Source: an uncultured Gemmatimonadales bacterium (GTDB lineage Bacteria > Gemmatimonadota > Gemmatimonadetes > Gemmatimonadales > GWC2-71-9). Taken from it: 64,000 bases of DNA. Positions 9,553 to 29,264 of the stretch are shown here, piece by piece; the stretch's first letter is position 1; every line of letters starts with the position of its first letter. Made by a program: the position numbers and the translations under genes. The stretch spans positions 1 through 64,000 of the forward strand of contig CAVOGR010000007.1 in the NCBI GenBank assembly GCA_963695555.1, in the 5' to 3' direction. Below the pieces are notes generated by a model. The model was not told the origin of the DNA and searched no databases. It worked only from the letters and a program-made list of their open reading frames with translations.

Positions 9553-10970
9553 TGGGCAACCGTGCTGAGTTCTCCTCTGAGATCCATGCGCACGCCGCGC
9601 ACCCGGCGATTGGCACCTTGAACGCCGCGCGCATAATAGAGGAACGCCACGGGCACCGAATCGACGAACACGCGGCGGATCGCCTCGCCGCCGGCCGGCA
9701 GCTTCATGCCGGTAAGGTCCACGAGCGGCCCAAGGTACCCCAGTGACAGGTCGCCCGGAATGCCCATGACCGCCCCCTCGAAATCGTGTCGCTGTCCGTA
9801 CACCCGGTCGAGAAAGGCCGACAGCTCGAGCTGGCGGAGTCGGACGTCGAAACCAACTTCGTGCAACTGTGCTTGAAGCATCTGCTCGAGCGCCGCTTCG
9901 CCGCTGCCCACCGTCAGAAGTTCGAAGCTCGGCCGTCGGTCGCCGAGCAGCCGCCGCGCCGAGGCGCGGTCCATCGGGACGGCCGGCGCCGGCAGCACCC
10001 CCGGCACGCCGGGCGGAATGGGACCAAAGGCGCTCGCGCCAAAGCCGTAGAGGTAGCCCTCGACGATCTCATCCCGATCGATGCTGAGCGAAACCGCCCG
10101 ACGAACCGTAATGTCGTCAAATGGCGCACGGCGGGTATTGAACACGACGCCGTACGTAAACAAGAGCGGGTAGTCGAGAACCACGAGCTCGGGATTCCGC
10201 CGCACGAAGTCCGCATGGGCAGGCTGAATTCCGGCGAAGTCCAGTTCCCCGGCGGTGAGCGCCGCAAGCTTGGTGGTCGGCTCGTCCACCACCACCACGA
10301 TGAAGCGATCCAACTGCGGGGGGCCGCCGAGGTCGGCCGGGAAGTCCGGATTGGCGGCGAAGACCCACCGCCGGTTGGGCTCATACGACACGAACTGGAA
10401 GGGGCCGTTGCCGACCGGCGCCTGGTTCCACTCCGCCTGTCGCATTCGATCCCGCGGCACGGTGTCGAGCCTGTGTGCCGGCACAATCGCCAGGTCCGTG
10501 AGCACGTCGGGGAAGTCCCCCTGCGGGTGGTCGAAATCCAGCAGGACCGTCGTGTCGTTGGGCACCTCGATACCAGAAAGGTGTGCCAAGTCGGCCAGCC
10601 GGGGATACCCGGTTGATGGGTCGCGTGCTGCAGCCAAGGTGAATCGCACGTCTACGGCGGTGGTGGGTGTGCCATCATGCCACCGCACGTTCGACGCGAG
10701 ATGCAGGGTGAGCCTCGTGTTTGCGCGGGACCATTGCCACGACCGGGCCAAATACGGCTCGATCGCGAGCGTGCTGTCGTAACGCGCGAGCGTCGTCAGG
10801 AATACGTACCGCTGGACCTGCTTCGCGAGCGGGTGAATCGTGACGAGGGGGTTGCTGCTCTGGAGGTCGGCTCCGGACGCATACAGCACCGTGGATCCGC
10901 GCCGTGTAGCCGCAGAGCCACATGCCGCCGCAGCAAGGAGGAGCGCGCCCAGCCCGAGTCGACTCACCAT
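9534..10970 (-). CDS. ABC transporter substrate-binding lipoprotein, family 5 (Dpp/Opp-like)
   Basis: Lipobox LAAAAC; PYLARSW, VRWHDGTPTTAVDVRFT, PVGNGPF. Confidence 0.92.
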   Translation of the reverse strand: MVSRLGLGALLLAAAACGSAATRRGSTVLYASGADLQSSNPLVTIHPLAKQVQRYVFLTTLARYDSTLAIEPYLARSWQWSRANTRLTLHLASNVRWHDGTPTTAVDVRFTLAAARDPSTGYPRLADLAHLSGIEVPNDTTVLLDFDHPQGDFPDVLTDLAIVPAHRLDTVPRDRMRQAEWNQAPVGNGPFQFVSYEPNRRWVFAANPDFPADLGGPPQLDRFIVVVVDEPTTKLAALTAGELDFAGIQPAHADFVRRNPELVVLDYPLLFTYGVVFNTRRAPFDDITVRRAVSLSIDRDEIVEGYLYGFGASAFGPIPPGVPGVLPAPAVPMDRASARRLLGDRRPSFELLTVGSGEAALEQMLQAQLHEVGFDVRLRQLELSAFLDRVYGQRHDFEGAVMGIPGDLSLGYLGPLVDLTGMKLPAGGEAIRRVFVDSVPVAFLYYARGVQGANRRVRGVRMDLRGELSTVAQWRVDP

Positions 10971-11055
10971 GTCAGGTAATTAAGGGCCGAACGAGGTTCC
11001 CTCCAAGCGGCAAGAAGGACTGGCGCCGCGTGCCACCGCCCCTGAGATTCTTTGG

Positions 11056-12021
11056 ATGATCCGATTTCTCGTCCGGCGTCTCTCGATGGGTGCTGCCGTT
11101 GTCTTCGGCGTTGTCACGCTCACCTTTCTCCTGCTCCACATCGCGCCAGGCGATCCGGTCGAACGGTTGATTGGGCCTGCCGCCACCTCGGCTCAGATCG
11201 ACGCGCAACGACGGGCCCTCGACCTGGATCGTCCCCTGATCGCCCAGTACGCTTCCTGGGTAGGCCGGTTCACGGTTGGTGATTGGGGAACCAGCATTGC
11301 ACGGGGCCGGCCGGTACGCCAAGTCATCGCCCGCGCATGGCCTGCGACCGTCATTCTCGTGGGCCTCTCCCTGAGCTTGAGTTATGTCATCGGCATCTTC
11401 GTCGGCGCCGTCCAGGCCAACGCGAGGGGAACCCGCCTCGACACGACGATCTCGGTCACCACCGTTGCCGTCTACGCACTGCCGGGATACTGGCTCGGCC
11501 TGATGCTGGTCATGGTCTTCACCTACTGGCTGCGGATCCTGCCGGCCTTCGGTGCGGCTGGATTGGACGCCGACTTCGTGACCGGCTGGCCGTGGGTGCT
11601 GGATCGGCTCCGGCATCTCGCCCTCCCGGTCGCGACGCTGACCCTGATCGGGATCGGAGGGGCGGCCCGCTTCGTCCGCGGCTCCATGGTGGACGTATTG
11701 TCCCAACCGTACGTGGTTGTCGCGCGCGCGAAAGGACTTGCCGCATCGCGCGTCACGTTTCATCACGTGCTTCGCAACGCCCTCGTTCCCCTGGTAACCC
11801 TGCTCGGCCTTTCCATTCCCGCCCTGTTCTCCGGCGCCGTCTTCGTCGAGGCCGTCTTCGCCTGGCCGGGTGTCGGACGAGTCCTGGTGGAGGCCGTCCA
11901 GGCACGGGACTACCCCGTGGTCATGGCGGCGACGGCCGTCAGCGCCATTCTGGTGGTGCTTGGAAACCTCGCGGCCGATGTGCTGATGACCTGGGTGGAC
12001 CCTCGGGTGAGGCACGCATGA
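11056..12021 (+). CDS. ABC transporter permease (DppB/OppB-like)
   Basis: APGDP, GDWGTSI, LRHLALP, ARAKGL, HVLRNAL, FAWPGVG, DPRVR. Confidence 0.93.
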   Translation: MIRFLVRRLSMGAAVVFGVVTLTFLLLHIAPGDPVERLIGPAATSAQIDAQRRALDLDRPLIAQYASWVGRFTVGDWGTSIARGRPVRQVIARAWPATVILVGLSLSLSYVIGIFVGAVQANARGTRLDTTISVTTVAVYALPGYWLGLMLVMVFTYWLRILPAFGAAGLDADFVTGWPWVLDRLRHLALPVATLTLIGIGGAARFVRGSMVDVLSQPYVVVARAKGLAASRVTFHHVLRNALVPLVTLLGLSIPALFSGAVFVEAVFAWPGVGRVLVEAVQARDYPVVMAATAVSAILVVLGNLAADVLMTWVDPRVRHA

Positions 12022-13467: not shown

Positions 13468-13627
13468 CGATTGGTATTCTCCCGAGCTGTGCAGCCAAGA
13501 CCGACAATTCCACGCGGGCTGGGACCCCGTCCACCACTGCTAAACGAGGTTTCGGGCGCGCTTCATGAACTTCTCACGCACTCGTATCGAGACTTCAGCC
13601 CGGCTAACAGGAGAAAGGGTAGTGACG

Positions 13628-15517
13628 ATGAGCGGTGCCATGCAGGACTGGAAGCGGACGCACGCGTCCAAAATCACGACGGTGGAGAAGGCGATCAAAA
13701 TGATCCCGCGCGGGCGGCGGATCCTCATCGGCTCCGGAGCCGCGGAGCCGCACGAGCTGGTCGAGGGACTGGTAGCGCACGGCGGCCATCTCGCAGACAA
13801 CGATATCGTCCATCTCATGACGCTCGGGCCCGCACCCTACGTCCAGCCCGGGATGGAGCATCGGTTTCGTCACACCGCCTTCTTCATCGGGCACAACGTA
13901 CGGGCCGCCGTAGCCGAGGGGCGTGCCGACTTCATGCCCGTATTCCTGTCGGAAATCCCTGCGCTCATCAAGAGCCGACGCGTGCGCATCGACGTGGCGC
14001 TGATCCAGGTGTCGCTCCCCGATCGGCACGGGTACGTGAGTCTGGGCGTCTCCGTGGATATCGTCCGGGCCGCCGTGGAAGCCGCCGATCTGGTCCTGGC
14101 CGAGGTGAACCCCAAGACACCGCGTACCCACGGCGACTCATTCATTCACGTCGACCGGATCGACGCACTGGTCCCGGTTGATTACCACCTTCCCGAGCTG
14201 CCCGCCAAGGCCGCGGACGATGTTTCTACGGAGATCGCTCGCTACGTCGCGAGCCTCATTCCCGACGGAGCGACCCTGCAACTCGGTATCGGAAAGATTC
14301 CCGACGCGGTGCTGGCCGCCCTCTCCAACCACCACGACCTCGGGGTGCATTCAGAGATGTTCTCCGACGGCGTCATGGACCTCGTCGAAGCAGGGGTGAT
14401 TACCGGTCGAAAGAAGACATTGCTCCCGGGCAAAGCGGTAACATCGTTCCTGATGGGAAGCCAGAAGCTCTATGATTGGGTTGATGACAATCCCGTTGTG
14501 GAAATGCGGCCCAGCAATTTCACCAACGACCCGTTCAACGTCGCGCGGAACGACCGCATGATCGCGGTCAATTCCGCACTCGCGGTCGACCTCACGGGCC
14601 AAGTAGCGGCCGATACGCTCATGGGCAACTTCTTCTCGGGCATCGGCGGTCAAGTCGATTTCATACGCGGAGCGGCGCGGAGCCACGGGGGCAAGCCAAT
14701 CATCGCGCTCCCGTCGACGGCCAAGGAGGCCAGCCGGATTCAGCCCGCCCTGGAAGAGGGAGCAGGTGTCGTCACCAGCCGCGGCGACGTCCGGTACGTC
14801 GTGACCGAGTTCGGCATCGCCGACCTCTGGGGCAAGAACATCCGCCAGCGCACCATGGCGCTCATCGAGATCGCGCACCCGGACTTCCGGGCCGAACTCC
14901 TCAATGCGGCCAAGGGACGCCGGTACGTCTTCGCCGACCAGATCGCGTCCGAGACCGTCTACCCGTGGGAAGACGCGCGGACCGTCCAATTGAAGACGGG
15001 TCAGACCATCGAGCTTCGGCCCGCACGCTTGAGCGACGAGGAGGCGTTACAGGACCTCTTCTACCGGCTCTCGGACGAGAGCACCTATCGGCGCTTCATG
15101 GCCTACAAGAACGTGCACTCACACTCGGAAATGCAACGACTCGTCGACTCGGATTACGAGCACAGCATGGCACTCCTGGCCACCCTGCCCGAAGGACCGG
15201 AAGAACAGATCCTCGCCATGGCGCGGTATGACGTCGATCCGGGGACGCGGCTTGCCGATATCGCCTTCGTCGTCCAAGATCAATGGCAGGGATGCGGGCT
15301 CGGAACCCTCTTGATGAAGCGCATGGGTGAGATTGCCAAGGCGCGAGGCGTAGCCGGTTTCACGGCCGACGTGTTCGACAGCAACAAGCCGATGCTCATG
15401 GTCTTCCACAAGAGCGGCCTTCATGTGCGAAGCGAGACCAAAGACAGTACCCGGCACCTCACGCTCTTGTTCGACGAACCGGAGCAAGAGGAAAGCTCCC
15501 GCGTTCGCACTGGTTGA
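13628..15517 (+). CDS. Acetyl-CoA hydrolase/4-hydroxybutyrate CoA-transferase fused to a C-terminal GNAT acetyltransferase
   Basis: DGATLQLGIGKIP, HSEMFSDG, SGIGGQVDFIRGA, VVTEFGIADL; GNAT part LRPARLSD..LSDESTYRRF..QWQGCGLG. AGGAG lies upstream. Confidence 0.9.
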   Translation: MSGAMQDWKRTHASKITTVEKAIKMIPRGRRILIGSGAAEPHELVEGLVAHGGHLADNDIVHLMTLGPAPYVQPGMEHRFRHTAFFIGHNVRAAVAEGRADFMPVFLSEIPALIKSRRVRIDVALIQVSLPDRHGYVSLGVSVDIVRAAVEAADLVLAEVNPKTPRTHGDSFIHVDRIDALVPVDYHLPELPAKAADDVSTEIARYVASLIPDGATLQLGIGKIPDAVLAALSNHHDLGVHSEMFSDGVMDLVEAGVITGRKKTLLPGKAVTSFLMGSQKLYDWVDDNPVVEMRPSNFTNDPFNVARNDRMIAVNSALAVDLTGQVAADTLMGNFFSGIGGQVDFIRGAARSHGGKPIIALPSTAKEASRIQPALEEGAGVVTSRGDVRYVVTEFGIADLWGKNIRQRTMALIEIAHPDFRAELLNAAKGRRYVFADQIASETVYPWEDARTVQLKTGQTIELRPARLSDEEALQDLFYRLSDESTYRRFMAYKNVHSHSEMQRLVDSDYEHSMALLATLPEGPEEQILAMARYDVDPGTRLADIAFVVQDQWQGCGLGTLLMKRMGEIAKARGVAGFTADVFDSNKPMLMVFHKSGLHVRSETKDSTRHLTLLFDEPEQEESSRVRTG

Positions 15518-15571: not shown

Positions 15572-17314
15572 CTAGGTGGGGAGATCGTCTCCCGGCTGCC
15601 ACCCGATCTCCTCCAATTGACGAAGCAGGCGCAGGGTCGCGTCACGGTCTCCCTGCACCGGAAGGAGGAGGAGGTCCCCGTCACGGGCCCAAGCCAGCGC
15701 CTCACGCACACCGAGCATCTCCGAATCGGCAACCACTAAACGTTCCCGCGGGGCTCCGAGCTTCACGAACTCATCGACCAGGAGCGCCGGCACCTCGCCC
15801 GGGCCGCGGCCACGCAGGTGCTTGGCCAACTCCTTGATGACGATGCGGTCCGGAGCGGCCGCCCACGCAGCTCGTGCCAGCGCCCGGATGGAGTCGTCAT
15901 CGCGATCACCCGCCTGGCCGATGAGAATGAGGCGCCGCGCCGCGGGCAGTCGGGCGGCCATCTCGACCACGGCGGCAATGCCATGCGGGTTGTGGGCAAA
16001 ATCGAGGATGACCCGGACCCCGCCTAAATCGAACATGTTGAGTCGGCCGGGATTGTCCTCACTCGAGGGCTGAAAGCTGCGGAGCGCGGCAGCCATGACC
16101 TCGAGCGACAGACCCAGGCCGGCCGCCACACCCACCGCCCCGAGCACGTTCGCCACGTTGTACCGGGCAGCCCCGCCGAGCGTGATCGGTATTCGGTCGA
16201 TCCGTTCGACGATCCGCGCCGTGCCCGCCAGGTTGAGCACCACCCCACCGCCTCGAGCGTAGACCGCATCGCCACCACGCGCGACATGCGCCTGCATGAA
16301 GGGAAGCCCCCCATCCAGGGTGAACCAAGTGATCGGCGCTGCAAGCGCCGCGACCGTGGAGCGGAGGGCCGGGTCGTCGGCGTTCAGCACCACCCGCCCG
16401 TGATGATCCACCACGCGGGCGACGACCAGCTTCACTTCAGCCAACGAATGGAGGTCATGGATTCCGAACTCGCCGAGGTGATCCTCGGCAATGTTGGTCA
16501 CGAGGGCGACCTCGGCGCGCCGCACCGCAAGCCCGCGCCGGAGGATCCCGCCGCGCGCCGCTTCCAGTACCGCTCGCTCCACCCGGGTGTCCCGGAGCAT
16601 CATCCGGGCGCCTCCGGGACCGGCCCAATCACCCTGATCGATGGTCTCCCGGCCGACGCGCACACCGTCGGTGCTGGTGATACCTGGCACGTACCCCCCC
16701 GCTTCGATCATGGCGGCAACCAATCGCACCGTCGTGGTCTTGCCGTTACATCCGGTCACCAAGGCCAGGGGAACATCGCGCACTCGTTCCCAAGGGATGG
16801 CATCGACATCGGGCAGATCGGCCGTCGGCCAGGCGATGGACCCGGAGCCCAGGCCGACCGACACTGCATGCTCATCCCATAAGCAGGCGACTCCGTGCGC
16901 GGCGGCGGCTTCTGCGATGGCAGGGAGGCGTGGATTCCTCTCCCGATCGATGGCCTCGCTGAGTCGCCGGGCGGCCTCGGCCACGCTTGGCGGTGTACCT
17001 CCGGTGAGCGTGGCCTCGGCCGCCTCCCAAGCCCATTCATTCACTTCGGTCGCGGCATAGAGCGCATCGATCGGCGCAGTCAGGACGAGGCTAGCGCCGC
17101 CTGGAAACGTCCGGCTGTACTGATGCTCTTGACCCCATCCCACGGCATCGAGGATGCGCCGTGCGGCGTCCCGCCAGGCCTCGACCGCACGCGCCTCTTC
17201 TCCCGGAGGGATGCTCACATCCAGGATCGCTCCGGGCCGGTCGCAGAGGAGATTGGGTCCGGTCAGCCGCCGGGAATCGGTTATCGCCGCCATGCGGGCA
17301 TCGCCCACGTCCAC
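15572..17314 (-). CDS. Cyanophycin-synthetase-like Mur-ligase protein (N-like + M domains, no ATP-grasp)
   Basis: TGCNGKTTT, LEAARGG, TNIAEDHLG, LNADD, PGRLN, LDFAHNP, GDRDD; the N-terminus is collinear with the adjacent CphA N-terminus. Alternative start ATG 17293. Confidence 0.85.
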   Translation of the reverse strand: MDVGDARMAAITDSRRLTGPNLLCDRPGAILDVSIPPGEEARAVEAWRDAARRILDAVGWGQEHQYSRTFPGGASLVLTAPIDALYAATEVNEWAWEAAEATLTGGTPPSVAEAARRLSEAIDRERNPRLPAIAEAAAAHGVACLWDEHAVSVGLGSGSIAWPTADLPDVDAIPWERVRDVPLALVTGCNGKTTTVRLVAAMIEAGGYVPGITSTDGVRVGRETIDQGDWAGPGGARMMLRDTRVERAVLEAARGGILRRGLAVRRAEVALVTNIAEDHLGEFGIHDLHSLAEVKLVVARVVDHHGRVVLNADDPALRSTVAALAAPITWFTLDGGLPFMQAHVARGGDAVYARGGGVVLNLAGTARIVERIDRIPITLGGAARYNVANVLGAVGVAAGLGLSLEVMAAALRSFQPSSEDNPGRLNMFDLGGVRVILDFAHNPHGIAAVVEMAARLPAARRLILIGQAGDRDDDSIRALARAAWAAAPDRIVIKELAKHLRGRGPGEVPALLVDEFVKLGAPRERLVVADSEMLGVREALAWARDGDLLLLPVQGDRDATLRLLRQLEEIGWQPGDDLPT

Positions 17315-17329
17315 GCTCCGAGGTCGGGC

Positions 17330-20133: not shown

Positions 20134-20967
20134 CTACGTTGTAGTCGCGGGAGCGAGTGGCGTCCGGGTGAGCAGGTTGTACGAAGCACCATTGATCAGT
20201 ATATGCAGCCGCACGCCGATGATGCAGACGGGGTCGTGGCGATGAGATGAATCCATCGACGTAAACTCGACGTCGGACGGATCTATGATGGTGATTGCGC
20301 CGCTCCCCCGGACCTCGATGCTGTCGTCTGGCCCAATGAAGGCAGCCGTATCTTCGTCCAGCCCCAAGCCGATCGCAAACGGGTTGTACGCCAGTGCCGC
20401 GAGCAGCCGCCCCAGGCGCCCACGCTGCCGGAAGTGCTGGTCGATAATGACCTGATTGGTCAGACCCAACCCCGGGGCCAGCGTCACCATGTCAGCGCGC
20501 GGCGACGAGCCCTCCTCGCCGAAGGCGATCATGTGCTCACTCAGGAATGCGGCCCCTGCCGAGGTCCCCGCGACGGGTACCCCGTTCGCATTGAGCTGGC
20601 GCACCAGCCGAGCCGCGGGGGTCCCGCCGAGCGTCGTGCTCAGCCGGAGTTGGTTCCCACCCGTCAGGAACACCCCCGTGGCGTCGCGCAGTTTCTCTAG
20701 CAGGTCCTCACGGTCGGCGTCGGCCCGATCGCGAAACGGAAAGGTGCGTACCCGGTCGGCACCAAGGTCCTTGAACACTGCTTCATACTGCTCGCCCGTG
20801 TCGTCCTGCTGTGACGCCGTGGGAATGACGGCGATTCTGGCGCGGTCGGCGCCGCAGAGCTGCACGAATTCCCGGAGGATCTCGGGATCCCTGAGTTTCT
20901 CTTCCGCCCCGCCAATCGGCACGATGTGTCCACGAATCGCATCCGGATTCGGCCGCGCAGGTGTCAT
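20134..20967 (-). CDS. cphB: Cyanophycinase
   Basis: PIGGAEEK, IPTAS, TGGNQLRL, GTSAGA, DQHFRQRGRLGRL, GLDEDTA. Confidence 0.95.
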   Translation of the reverse strand: MTPARPNPDAIRGHIVPIGGAEEKLRDPEILREFVQLCGADRARIAVIPTASQQDDTGEQYEAVFKDLGADRVRTFPFRDRADADREDLLEKLRDATGVFLTGGNQLRLSTTLGGTPAARLVRQLNANGVPVAGTSAGAAFLSEHMIAFGEEGSSPRADMVTLAPGLGLTNQVIIDQHFRQRGRLGRLLAALAYNPFAIGLGLDEDTAAFIGPDDSIEVRGSGAITIIDPSDVEFTSMDSSHRHDPVCIIGVRLHILINGASYNLLTRTPLAPATTT

Positions 20968-22133
20968 GATTGTCCCTCGAATGTGCCTAGTTTGACCACG
21001 GCACCGTCTCTCACGTGCCACTGCCCTCCCGCCATGACGTCCATCATGCCCCCCTCGTCGTCGAGCATCACAAGGTCGGCGTCGGCCCCGATTGCGATAC
21101 GGCCTTTCCCGGCTAGCCGGAGCAGCTTTGCGGCGTTCGTCGTGAAGACCGGCAGCACCACTTCCAGCGCGTGACCCATGCGCACCAGCTCGCGGAGAGT
21201 CGCGGCCATGGCGCGCGGCTCTCCCACGTCCATCCCGGTCATTTGCCCCGCTCCGTCAAAGGTCGGGAGCGACCCGCCGCCGTCGGAGCTCACCGTAATG
21301 CGGTCCCGCGGAAGCCCGCGCTCCAGAAACATGGTGACAGCCCGGGCCGCGGGCCACGCATCTTCATCCTCGGCCACCGGAAAGGCGGTCACATCGATGG
21401 TGCAGCCACGCTGGGCCAGCTCGAGCGCCTCCTCGAACAACGCCCGTCGCCGGTTGACATGCGTGGGATTGAAGACCCGCGCTGGGACCTCGCTCCGTTC
21501 GAGCGCCTCCCGCACCATGCTCAAGCCCCGAGGCCCGTCACCTAGGTGCAAGTGGAGGATGCCGGCCTTGCCTGACAAGAGCCCCCCCACGTGGGCGTCG
21601 GCCGCCACGTGGAGCAGCTCGTCGAGCGTCGGTTGGCTCGAACGGTGATCACTCAGTGCCACCTCGCCGACCCCGAGGATGCGATCGATATGGACGATAT
21701 CGCCCCGCACGGTCCCGGTCACCGTGACGGGAGGCAGATGGTAGCCGCCAGTCAGACAGTAGGCGGTGATTCCCTCGTCGAGGAGCCCCCGCGTTGCGGC
21801 TACTAAGTCGCCAGGGTGGCGAGTGGTATCGTCGGTGCCCAGGACACCCACAACCGTCGTCACTCCGCCGCGGGTGAACCGACTGACTCCAAGTGGCGGG
21901 ACCCGGGTTCGAGGTCCGGCTTCCCCACCGCCGCCGGTGATATGTACGTGGGGATCGACGAGCCCCGGGATGACCCGGCGACCCGCAAAGTCATGCCGCG
22001 TTACACCCAACGAGGAAGGAACGCCCGGGTCGGCATCGCCGATCCAGACGATCTTACCGGCGGCAACGAGTATGTGCCGGACGCCGAGACGCTCTGGGGC
22101 GAATATCTCAACGTTGAGGAGTAGATCCATCAT
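20964..22133 (-). CDS. iadA: Isoaspartyl dipeptidase (beta-aspartyl peptidase)
   Basis: DPHVHITGGGGEAG, GVLGTD, ALSDHRSSQP, HLHLGDG, PTHVNR, SSDGGGSLP. Confidence 0.95.
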   Translation of the reverse strand: MMDLLLNVEIFAPERLGVRHILVAAGKIVWIGDADPGVPSSLGVTRHDFAGRRVIPGLVDPHVHITGGGGEAGPRTRVPPLGVSRFTRGGVTTVVGVLGTDDTTRHPGDLVAATRGLLDEGITAYCLTGGYHLPPVTVTGTVRGDIVHIDRILGVGEVALSDHRSSQPTLDELLHVAADAHVGGLLSGKAGILHLHLGDGPRGLSMVREALERSEVPARVFNPTHVNRRRALFEEALELAQRGCTIDVTAFPVAEDEDAWPAARAVTMFLERGLPRDRITVSSDGGGSLPTFDGAGQMTGMDVGEPRAMAATLRELVRMGHALEVVLPVFTTNAAKLLRLAGKGRIAIGADADLVMLDDEGGMMDVMAGGQWHVRDGAVVKLGTFEGQS

Positions 22134-26185: not shown

Positions 26186-26968
26186 TCAGAGGTCCCCTCG
26201 GATTGCCCAGAGATCGGGAAATACCGGCTTCATCAAGGTCGTCTTTAGGTATTCCGCGCCGGCGCTCCCGCCGGTGCCCGGCTTGGTCCCGATGGTGCGC
26301 TCCACCATCTTCACATGCCGGTAGCGCCACTCCTGCAGCCCCTCGTCCAAATCCACCAGCCGCTCGCACACCGGAACGATGGTCGGATTCCCGCGGTAGA
26401 TGCTAGTCAAGATTCCCTGCACCTGAGGCGACGATGGGGCTGGCTGGGTCACGTCGCGTTCCAAGAGTTCCGCAGGAATCGCGTACCCGCTATCCGCGAC
26501 ATACTTCAGGAACGCATCCCACAGCGTGCCTTGCCGGTATCGCGTCTCGAGTGTCTGGCGCCCGACCGAGTCCACCGGAAAATGCTGGATGGCGGCCCGG
26601 TCCCGTCGCCCGAGGAGAAACTCGAGCTCGCGGAACTGGTACGATTGAAATCCACTGCCCGATTCCAGCCGATCCCGAAAGGACAGGAAGTCTAGCGGAG
26701 TGATGGTCTCCAAGACGTCGATCTGAGACACGAGGACTTTGAGAATGGTGAGGATGCGTTTGAACGTGGCCAACGCGAGCGGCGTATTGGTCTCGACCAA
26801 CAATTTGCGCAGGTAATCCACCTCGTGGATCACTTCCTTGAACCACAACTCGTAGACCTGATGGATAATGATGAAGAGCGTTTCGTCATGCTCGGGCCCT
26901 TCGGACACCGGTTGCTGCAGGTGGAGCAATTCGTCGAGTTTGAGATAGCTCGAGTACGTCAGCGGCAT
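26186..26968 (-). CDS. kynA: Tryptophan 2,3-dioxygenase
   Basis: YSSYLKLDELL, HDETLFIIIHQVYELWFK, SGFQSYQFRELE, WRYRHVKMVERTIGTKPGTGGS. Confidence 0.96.
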   Translation of the reverse strand: MPLTYSSYLKLDELLHLQQPVSEGPEHDETLFIIIHQVYELWFKEVIHEVDYLRKLLVETNTPLALATFKRILTILKVLVSQIDVLETITPLDFLSFRDRLESGSGFQSYQFRELEFLLGRRDRAAIQHFPVDSVGRQTLETRYRQGTLWDAFLKYVADSGYAIPAELLERDVTQPAPSSPQVQGILTSIYRGNPTIVPVCERLVDLDEGLQEWRYRHVKMVERTIGTKPGTGGSAGAEYLKTTLMKPVFPDLWAIRGDL

Positions 26969-27011
26969 GGGTGTCGCTCCTGAAGTGGCTTCCGGAACCA
27001 GGGAAACATCG

Positions 27012-29264
27012 CTAGTCAAACCGGGGCACGTACCCGTCGAGCACGTGGTAGGGGCTGGACCAGGGCAGCGGGTGCTGCAGGGCCTGCGCTGCGTGGTGTG
27101 TCCAATATGGGTCCCACAAGTGGGCGCGCGCCAGCACACAGAGATCGGCCCGACCCGCCGCCAGAATGCTATTGACGTCCATGAAGGACGAGATGTTCCC
27201 CACGGCCATGGTCGAAATAGCCGCCTCGTGGCGAATACGGTCGCTGAATGGCGTCTGAAACTGCCGCCCATAGACAGGCTGTGCCTCGGGAACCGTCTGC
27301 CCGGCGGATACATCGATGATGTCGCACCCGTGGGCCTTGAGTCGACGGGCCACTTCGACGGCGTCGGGCGGCTCCATGCCGCCAGGAACCCAATCGACGG
27401 CTGAAATCCGGACCGACACCGGCTTGGGTTTGGGCCATGCCGCGCGGACCGCATCCAGGATCTCGAGGGGGAACCTGAGCCGGTTGTCGAGCGACCCGCC
27501 ATACGCATCCGTCCGCCGGTTGGTGAGCGGAGAAATGAAGGTCGAGAGTAGGTACCCGTGCGCGAAGTGGAGTTCCAGCAGATCGAAGCCTGCTTCGTCC
27601 GCCATACGGGTGGCCTGCACGAAGTCGTCGCGGACCCGGTCCATGTCATCACGGTCCATCGCCCGTGGCACCTGATACCCGGGTGCGTACGGAATCGGCG
27701 ATGGCGCGAGGAGGGGCCAGGCTCCATCCGCGAGCGGCCCGCCTTCGCCCTCCCACGGGCGCTTGGTGGCGCCCTTCCGTCCCGCGTGGGCAAGCTGAAT
27801 CCCGATCTTGGCCGGTGAGTGCCGGTGCACGAAGTCGACGATGCGGCGCCACGAGACGGTGTGCTCGGGCTGGTACATCCCGGTGCACCCCAGCGAGATC
27901 CGTCCGTCGCGGCTCACGTCGGTCATCTCGGTCATAACCAGGCCGGCACCTCCGACCGCCCGGCTGCCAAGGTGCGCCAGGTGCCAGTCCCCCGGCGTGC
28001 CGTCCTCAGCGGAGTACTGGCACATCGGCGACACGACGACCCGATTGACCAATACGAGATCCCGAAGCCGGAACGGCGTGAACATCGGTGGGGGCGCGGG
28101 TGAGGTGTCGACGGCGACCCCGCTCTGTCGCGTCGCCTGTCGCGCGAAGACGCGGTCAACTTCGGACACGAATGTCGGGTCGCGCCGTCGAAGATTCTCG
28201 TGAGTTATGCGGAGGCTCCGGGTCAGGAGACTGAACGCAAATTGGACCGGCTCGAGGGCCCGATAGCGTTCCGTCTCCTCGAACCACTGAAGGCTGACCT
28301 CGGCCGCGCGCTGGAGGCTCTCCACCTCCGGTCGCCGAGCACGCTCGTACGCCGTCAACGCCGCCGGTACGTCGGCCGTGCTACGGAGCGCATCGACCAA
28401 CGCGATGGTGTCCTCCATGGCCAACTTGGTACCTGAACCGACAGAGAAATGTGCGGTGTGGGCCGCATCACCGATCAAGACCACGTTCTCGTGGTGCCAC
28501 GTGGCATTCCGAATGGTCGGGAACCGGCGCCAAATGGATCGGTTGGCGAGGAGGGAATGACCTTCCAGCTCCTCGGCGAAGAGATCTTGGCAAAAGGCAA
28601 CGGTGTCGTCCTCGGTTGCGCTCTCCATGCCGGCGGCGCGCCACGTCTCCTCTCGTGCCTCGACGATGAAGGTCGAATGCCCGGCTTCATACTGATAGGC
28701 GTGCACTCGCCACAACCCGTATGGGCTCTCCTTGAAGTAGAAGGTGAAGGCCGGAAACTTCCGGGTTGTGCCCAGCCAGACGAAGCGGTTGGGCCGCCAA
28801 TCGATCTCCGGCCGAAACAGGTCGCTGAACCAACCCCGGACGACGCTGTTGAAGCCGTCGGCACCGAGAATCAGATCGGCTCCCTTCACCGTATCGTACT
28901 CTTGGACCTCCGATTCAAAGCGCAGATCGACATCCAGCTCCTCGCATCGGCGACTCAGAATCGTGAGGAGTCGCTGTCGTGACAACCCGCTGAAGCCATG
29001 GCCCGTCGAGGTGGTGGTGGCACCGCGGTGGTGGATCTCGATATCGTCCCAGTGCGCGAATGCGCGGGTCATCTCGTCGTGGGATGGTTGGTCGGCCTGG
29101 GCCAGGCGTTCTAACGTGGCGTCGGAAAAGACCACGCCAAACCCGAACGTGTCGTGCAAGCGATTTCGCTCGTAGACGGTGACCTGGCTCGCCGGATCGG
29201 CCTTCTTGAGCAGGATGGCCGCGTACAAGCCGGACGGCCCGCCGCCAATAGTCACCACCCTCAC
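27012..29264 (-). CDS. abmA: Anthraniloyl-CoA monooxygenase/reductase (salicylyl-CoA 5-hydroxylase family; FAD monooxygenase + OYE fusion)
   Basis: [57 protein letters not shown] half [22 protein letters not shown]. Confidence 0.88.

Follow-up and report, generated by a model that had tools for sequence, protein, structure and literature searches.

In a 64,000-nucleotide stretch of DNA from an uncultured Gemmatimonadales bacterium (contig CAVOGR010000007.1 of assembly GCA_963695555.1; hereafter the window, by which the whole stretch is meant) an open reading frame (ORF) of 580 amino acids (aa) follows directly after the gene for a full-length cyanophycin synthetase 1, cphA1. Profile comparisons, a predicted fold and phylogenetic trees support the view that its product is CphA1 minus residues ~208-487, that is, an N domain, about 40 residues of the core of the ATP-grasp (G) domain and a complete Mur ligase-like (M) domain. 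We call it the G-less protein; it is apparently of the type listed before as cphA'. The known ATP- and Mg-binding residues of the M site are conserved in it, its gene lies beside cphA1 in related genomes, and its M domain falls outside those of the CphA1s in trees in which the partner CphA1s form clades of their own. We propose, with a probability of roughly 0.55, that it is an active, free-standing side-chain ligase of the M type which acts on cyanophycin made by the partner CphA1.

Domain architecture and M-site residues

Residues 177-569 of the G-less protein are a CphA-type M domain (domain boundaries are given in Table 1). BLAST against the neighbouring CphA1 gave 36% identity between residues 118-551 and 437-864, with an E value of 2e-64. 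Pfam recognised Mur_ligase_M at residues 186-397 (65.2 bits, cutoff 24) and Mur_ligase_C at residues 423-551 (52.7 bits, cutoff 28.4). Among the NCBIfam models, residues 177-553 scored 367.3 bits with TIGR02068 (cutoff 850) and 338.1 bits with NF010623 (cutoff 877), both below the cutoffs for full-length proteins. The best other Mur model was murE, with 95.7 bits against a cutoff of 257.3, and MurC, MurD, MurF, FolC and MurT all scored lower. When the protein was compared with the sequences of solved structures, CphA1 chains gave 238 bits and the top MurE-type chain 65.

Pfam found no match in residues 1-176, PF18921 included, and BLAST of the N-terminal part against the neighbouring CphA1 was not significant (residues 11-73 against 3-65, E 0.66). 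Profile-profile comparison of 107 family members with 51 CphA1s using hhalign aligned family residues 9-161 with CphA1 1-207 at a probability of 92.6% (E 4.6e-7), and residues 9-59 with positions 1-54 of the CphA1 N domain at 81.8% (E 1.1e-5). The N-terminal parallels with CphA pointed out in the initial annotation (RRLTGPNL, AIAEAAAAHGV..VSVGLG) are thus upheld by the profiles and by the fold described below, and not by BLAST. The same annotation had described the C..HxxEH site of the CphA N domain as absent, and no HxxEH occurs in residues 1-176; the stretch which bears this site in CphA1 is shortened in the G-less family.

The segment 110-160, which holds the second of these parallels (AIAEAAAAHGV..VSVGLG), had on its own a single match, CphA1 153-206, at a probability of 81% (E 1.2e-5), corresponding to the first segment of the G core. 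We rejected a low-confidence alignment in which residues 126-176 were matched to CphA1 412-487, where the G domain ends, since the segment alone finds only CphA1 153-206. CphA1 ~208-487 had no counterpart in the profile alignment, consistent with the earlier estimate that roughly 280 aa of ATP-grasp are skipped, and Pfam found no ATP-grasp match in the G-less protein and several in the neighbouring CphA1.

An AlphaFold model of the protein had a predicted local distance difference test score (pLDDT) of 97 and a predicted template modelling score of 0.95. Alignment and structural modelling against CphA1 had been proposed from the outset among the ways to check the gene. In a Foldseek search the query-normalised template modelling (TM) scores were 0.83, 0.81 and 0.80 for the CphA1 chains 7wae_A, 7lg5_A and 7lgq_A, in comparison to 0.55 for MurE (1e8c_B). 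Given that the M part makes up only ~70% of the query, a TM score of 0.83 means that the N part must superpose too.

The G-less protein therefore shares with CphA1 (7LG5, 7LGQ, 7WAE) the N fold, the N-Mcore-Mlid arrangement, the ATP/Mg and D-H residues, and an operon. It differs from CphA1 in lacking ~280 residues of the G domain, and hence cannot extend the Asp backbone and is not expected to make cyanophycin from Asp, Arg and ATP; it also lacks C..HxxEH and the conserved H512, R787, D790 and F802, and falls in a separate clade. A second useful comparison is CphA2. CphA2 has an N domain and a G domain that is active, and its M domain is truncated and inactive (PMC10273328); it is described as cyanobacterial (PMC10273328, PMC10206079). 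Like the G-less protein it is a reduced relative of CphA1 with an N domain and a single catalytic domain (PMC10273328). In the G-less protein, however, the reduction is reversed, with G lost and M complete and, to judge by its residues, probably active. Profiles, fold and tree support the initial description of the gene as a CphA minus its ATP-grasp domain, the opposite of CphA2, and the term 'mirror image' used there is apt.

In TeCphA1 the ATP/Mg residues of the M site are N497, K499 and T500 (P-loop 495-501), T522, E558, R731 and H748 (PMC9427784), and the D585A/H586A mutation inactivates the M domain of SuCphA1 (PMC9262961). An alignment to SuCphA1 relates CphA1 numbering to that of the G-less protein by an offset of 307, which places the P-loop residues at N190, K192 and T193, T522 at T215, E558 at E251, D585/H586 at D278/H279, R731 at R424 and H748 at H441. 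All of these residues are present in the G-less protein, so that the M-domain motifs are intact, as had been recognised before. With the exception of T193 and T215, each is conserved to 90% or more in CphA1 as well as in the family; T193 and T215 are invariant in an alignment of 24 sequences. K295 is conserved as well, at what we take to be the place of the carbamylated lysine of Mur ligases. The G-less protein appears to retain the parts from which the polymer groove at the M site is formed. A search for specificity-switch positions, fixed in CphA1 and in the family but differing between the two, found none, and only one-sided differences were seen.

A family paired with one group of CphA1

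A word-indexed search with the G-less protein returned 6367 matches, the best 120 of which were all 550-607 aa long with 95-100% coverage and 53-100% identity. Their source names are 'Mur ligase family protein' or 'cyanophycin synthetase', and a protein atlas gives automatic names only. An exhaustive search of 50%-identity representatives found 1313 proteins at E <= 1e-30, CphA1s counted in. Of the best 150 of these representatives, 147 have the family N domain, the other three being fragments of 366-426 aa; 134 have a length of 540-660 aa, and none has a G-domain match. The N region is highly conserved across the family. To judge by named sources and loci, family members occur in Gemmatimonadota, Acidobacteriota, Pseudomonadota, Planctomycetota and Myxococcota. 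No model specific to it was found in NCBIfam or Pfam.

Five long representatives were scanned for fusions. One of them, P0159 (757 aa), contains a stretch of DUF559 and was discarded as an apparent gene-call artefact. In P0169 (972 aa) a partner-type CphA1 M domain, of which the final ~400 residues are present (54% identity to that of the window), runs stop-free into a complete G-less protein. This could be a true CphA1-CphA' fusion in nature or the result of a missed stop, and it is the only such case among the 150 best representatives.

Genome contigs were scanned using M-domain motifs common to CphA1, which gave at least seven full-length family loci (L001-L007) and the short partial L009, a small sample for synteny. 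The counts of loci that follow, here and further below, are counts among the matches listed. The initial annotation had named co-occurrence with cphA as a check, and cphA1 is adjacent, with cphB nearby, at 8/8 family loci (the window and L001-L007). At six of the eight the G-less gene lies directly downstream of cphA1 on the same strand, and in L001 and L002 the two genes are convergent. In L001 the cphA1 beside the family member (9714-11747, minus strand) is broken or misassembled: its ORF has 678 aa and scores weakly for the G domain (153 bits).

Phylogenetic trees of the M domain were made with FastTree (113 rows) and with a quick IQ-TREE run under LG+C20 with posterior mean site frequencies (70 rows). 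Left out of the second tree were roughly half of the family representatives with P numbers, ~26 CphA1s of clades already well sampled, the cphA' of L035 with its long branch, L048 and fragments. The family forms a clade with a support of 99 in both trees. A second clade of G-less proteins, actinobacterial and chloroflexal, has supports of 99 (FastTree) and 98 (IQ-TREE), and the two G-less clades are joined at 89 and 80, respectively. In both trees they lie outside the CphA1 M domains, within CphA-type M domains and at a long distance from the outgroup of Mur-like proteins. Model scores, structure-sequence scores and both trees hence agree in setting the protein apart from MurE, MurF, FolC and CapB, the grouping which the initial annotation had named as evidence against its reading.

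The CphA1s found beside G-less genes also form clades of their own, one of ten rows with a support of 99 and one of nine rows with 89 (FastTree). These two partner clades are sisters (87, IQ-TREE), mirroring the two G-less clades. A G-less gene was present in the stretch examined for 15 of the 19 partner-clade CphA1s and for 0 of the 45 other CphA1 rows. The exceptions are L063, L070 and L045, which have no G-less gene in that stretch, and L040, which stops at a contig end. L070 was covered for 8 kb on each side within a complete chromosome and is still without one. Either the pairing with partner-clade cphA1 is not absolute or the G-less gene lies elsewhere in the genomes of L063, L070 and L045. 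The overall pattern fits an old two-gene module, inherited or transferred together.

The second G-less group was seen in Actinomycetota and Chloroflexota at 12 loci (L008, L010, L011, L012, L026, L044, L049, L050, L052, which is partial, L061, L066 and L068). In hhalign comparisons the N region of this group matches the CphA1 N domain at a probability of 96.4% (E 1.3e-9) and that of the window family at 90% (E 1.4e-6). The group resembles the window family in combining an N-like domain with M and no ATP-grasp, in its position as sister clade (80-89) and in occurring near the sister clade of CphA1s. In contrast to the window family, its N domain joins M directly without a G-core remnant, it is not detected by the family N profile at E 1e-5, and its genes are mostly convergent with cphA1 or several kb away. 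At nine of the 12 loci cphA1 is present, at one there is a probable end-of-locus fragment, and at two there is none in the stretch examined.

With regard to the partner CphA1s, C..HxxEH is carried by 17/17 from the partner clades and by 32/34 others. The partner clades have their own changes at positions that hardly vary in other CphA1s, namely N231 for K, Q244 where 34/34 others have G, an inserted G669 and M509 for L, none of which touches a known catalytic residue. We considered whether a defect in the partner CphA1 might have to be made up in trans by an M domain or by a source of primers; this was rejected, as the catalytic M residues are shared and C..HxxEH is found in all 17. A different kind of cphA doubling from that in the window is seen in tandem full-length pairs, mostly in Betaproteobacteria (L015, L020, L023, L025, L033, L035, L039, L047 and L069). 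In these the upstream copy scores 54-79 bits against the window M domain and the downstream copy 224-261 bits, with a weak N score for the downstream copy.

Genes of this class have been recorded before. A 2013 paper (PMC3646047) draws or lists cphA' as 'cyanophycin ligase-like' Group VII in its supplement (Fig. S2B, Fig. S3 and Table S2). In Fig. S3 and Table S2 Group VII has 28 proteins, from Colwellia, Francisella, Congregibacter, NOR5-3, Octadecabacter and Plesiocystis, and Group X has five, from Kribbella, Janibacter, Nakamurella, Dermacoccus and Kytococcus; the two groups are traced there to Fuser and Steinbuchel 2007. The Octadecabacter arcticus cluster of Fig. S2B reads cphB - cphA (Group VI) - cphA' (Group VII) - iaaA, the last encoding an isoaspartyl peptidase (PMC3646047). 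The window, with iadA-cphB-cphA1 and then the G-less gene, likewise has cphA' next to cphA. For Plesiocystis pacifica SIR-1 the accessions listed in Groups VI and VII are consecutive (PMC3646047), and our Plesiocystis pacifica locus, L007, holds a single cphA1 with a single family member next to it, the latter within the family clade (99). From organism, adjacency and clade we infer that the G-less family is probably Group VII, an assignment made at the level of groups and not by matching accessions to sequences.

The actinobacterial G-less group is probably Group X, and probably also the shorter copy of cphA in Tetrasphaera. Metagenome-assembled genomes of Tetrasphaera have a longer and a shorter cphA copy, both of which are expressed (PMC10687191). 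Congregibacter litoralis, listed with a Group VII protein (PMC3646047), accumulates cyanophycin (PMC3679898). A term search of the accessible text of a 2023 bioinformatics paper on cyanophycin genes (PMC10206079) found no mention of the G-less form. The initial annotation had known of no characterisation of the form, which stands as regards function; as regards the gene class it does not, since the class had apparently been catalogued already as cphA'/Group VII (PMC3646047). As far as the searchable literature shows, the G-less form is a sequence group listed since 2007 and neither dissected nor assayed.

Proposed function and alternatives

The full conservation of the ATP/Mg residues of the M site fits a stand-alone side-chain ligase, one of the two readings offered in the initial annotation, the other being a regulatory subunit. 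In the mechanism that we propose, modelled on the M site of CphA1, a cyanophycin chain or oligomer would be bound between the N domain, acting as a polymer holder, and Mcore. ATP would then phosphorylate the free beta-carboxyl of an aspartate, and an amino acid would be attached through an isopeptide bond, with arginine as the default and another amino acid possible. As the G-less protein cannot extend the Asp backbone, it would work on chains from the CphA1 encoded immediately upstream, with whose gene its own appears to be co-transcribed and has been co-inherited.

A number of points weigh against this proposal. The M domain of the partner CphA1 is intact and its C..HxxEH primer site is present, which leaves the need for a second M site unexplained. 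Four residues of the window CphA1, namely H512, F802 and, within the GDRRDxD stretch, R787 and D790, show 93-98% conservation among CphA1s and vary in the family, and R237, R241 and R260 are fixed in the G-less family and variable in CphA1. Because residues conserved in CphA1 are lost and the family has arginines of its own, the substrate or the amino acid may differ from those of CphA1. In the trees the union of the two G-less clades is supported at 80-89 only, and the outgroup retained consists of two uncharacterised Mur-like proteins. In Tetrasphaera the shorter cphA is expressed below the longer one (PMC10687191), the shorter gene probably being of the sister group and not of the window family. 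Finally, a search of the searchable literature found no biochemical or functional study of the G-less form.

A variant of the ligase proposal, which we regard as possible and distinctly less probable, is that the protein is a second tailoring enzyme. It would add an amino acid other than arginine, or decorate aspartates beyond the reach of the CphA1 M site, for example at released ends, in internal gaps or on granule chains. If so, carriers of cphA and cphA' would make a chemically or architecturally distinct polymer by a division of labour between two enzymes, possibly in a CphA1-CphA' complex.

The strict adjacency and the co-inheritance with one CphA1 clade would also be consistent with a subunit of a hetero-oligomer. 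Such a subunit would dock on CphA1 via Mcore and the G-core remnant and modulate polymerisation, chain length or granule attachment, whether or not its own active site is used. In CphA1 tetramers Mcore touches the N domain and three Gcores (PMC9427784), the G-core remnant is kept and conserved in the family, and one in-frame read-through from CphA1 into a G-less protein occurs among the 150 best representatives. Clade-specific changes in the partner CphA1s, such as Q244 and the inserted G669, point the same way. However, most of Gcore, which forms a large dimer interface in CphA1 (PMC9427784), is missing, and a purely regulatory role leaves the retention of every ATP/Mg residue of the M site unexplained. 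Furthermore, the genes are convergent or several kb apart in 2/8 family loci and in most sister-group loci, and hence translational coupling is not general. We consider a subunit role unlikely.

Also unlikely, in our judgement, is a ligase with an acceptor other than the polymer end. Its acceptors might be free Asp or very short oligomers, giving beta-Asp-Arg or primers for CphA1, or bare aspartates inside the chain which it would re-decorate. The M-type chemistry apparently retained would allow this, and the family arginines R237, R241 and R260 could bind extra carboxylates. The minimal CphA1 primer is (beta-Asp-Arg)-Asp (PMC9262961), and the operon itself also yields beta-Asp-Arg through cyanophycinase. 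Against this, a dipeptide made and hydrolysed within one operon would be a futile cycle, and C..HxxEH, present in every partner CphA1 of the 17, is already a primer source (PMC9262961). The retained polymer-anchoring N domain, moreover, argues for a polymeric substrate.

The protein does resemble a deletion derivative of CphA1, as a decaying and functionless remnant of a tandem cphA duplication would, but an intact reading frame, conserved catalytic residues, the pLDDT of 97, and the size and age of a family whose length and N and M motifs are conserved across several phyla make this very improbable. Least credible of all is an ordinary Mur ligase of the MurE, MurF, FolC, CapB or MurT kind, acting in cell wall, folate or poly-glutamate synthesis and lying beside cphA by chance: Pfam names only Mur_ligase_M and Mur_ligase_C, sources often read 'Mur ligase family protein', and MurE shares the Mur middle and C-terminal domains, the P-loop, the Mg-binding glutamate and the D-H motif, but a Mur N-terminal domain is lacking and the N part resembles that of CphA1, the similarity to MurE is low (96 bits with a cutoff of 257, TM 0.55), the Mur, FolC and MurT models all stay far under their own cutoffs and under the CphA models, and both the M-domain tree and the synteny with cphA1 at 8/8 loci place the gene elsewhere.

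In existing descriptions a single enzyme, CphA1, makes cyanophycin, and CphA2 is a variant that serves recycling in cyanobacteria. That a conserved and widespread protein has just the half of CphA1 which adds side chains, and in several phyla is tied to one CphA1 clade, suggests that the non-cyanobacterial pathway is partly unexplained. If the active, free-standing M-type ligase that we propose were to add a different amino acid, or to complete chains in trans, it would offer a natural means of altering the composition of cyanophycin, a stated aim of the biopolymer field. The structural reading, an N domain with a G-core remnant and a complete M domain, gives the old cphA'/Group VII entry a specific biochemical hypothesis. 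The G-less form poses a clear question about a widespread and conserved pathway component and does not amount to a new kind of system.

The operon and its surroundings

The G-less ORF lies exactly where the initial annotation had set a 580-aa gene directly after cphA, and is the last of four co-directional genes in the order iadA-cphB-cphA1-X, where X is the G-less ORF (Table 1). Between the cphA1 stop and the first GTG of this ORF there are 15 nucleotides (nt). The window cphA1 is full-length, with 1126 bits against a cutoff of 877 for NF010623 and model positions 1-866 of 871 covered. The identical database protein to the G-less ORF has 578 aa, and this together with the GGAG 7 nt upstream makes the GTG at 17308 the probable true start.

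Table 1. Features of the cyanophycin locus in the window and domains of the G-less protein
Feature	Position	Strand	Remarks
G-less CphA paralog (cphA'-type)	15572..17314	-	ORF of 580 aa; likely start GTG 17308, giving 578 aa
Mlid (Mur ligase C-terminal domain), residues ~416-569	15608..16069	-	R424, H441
Mcore (Mur ligase middle domain), residues ~181-415	16070..16774	-	P-loop G188-T194, T215, E251, D278/H279, K295
G (ATP-grasp) core remnant, first segment, residues ~126-163	16826..16939	-	matches CphA1 ~166-207
CphA1-like N domain, residues ~9-125	16940..17290	-	without C..HxxEH peptidase-like site; conserved DSRRLTGPN, APxDxLYAATE
Shine-Dalgarno-like GGAG	17316..17319	-	7 nt ahead of GTG 17308; read from sequence
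cphA1, full-length cyanophycin synthetase 1, 928 aa	17330..20116	-	N domain C58..H80xxE83H84; G and M intact
Cyanophycinase (cphB)	20134..21021	-	TIGR02069, 261 bits; longest-start ORF; model matches residues 33-279
Isoaspartyl dipeptidase (iadA)	20964..22133	-	TIGR01975, 412 bits; opens apparent operon

A scan of the locus for promoters and terminators gave counts not above those in shuffled sequences. The gene beyond the operon end is convergent (13565-15517, plus strand) and is a 650-aa ORF in which a butyryl-CoA:acetate CoA-transferase-like part (281 bits, below the cutoff) is fused to a Pat-like GNAT acetyltransferase part at residues 473-624. Elsewhere in the window, a 535-aa ORF at 26186-27793 (minus strand) has a tryptophan 2,3-dioxygenase match confined to residues 278-535; either its first ~277 residues are without an NCBIfam match or its true start lies further in.

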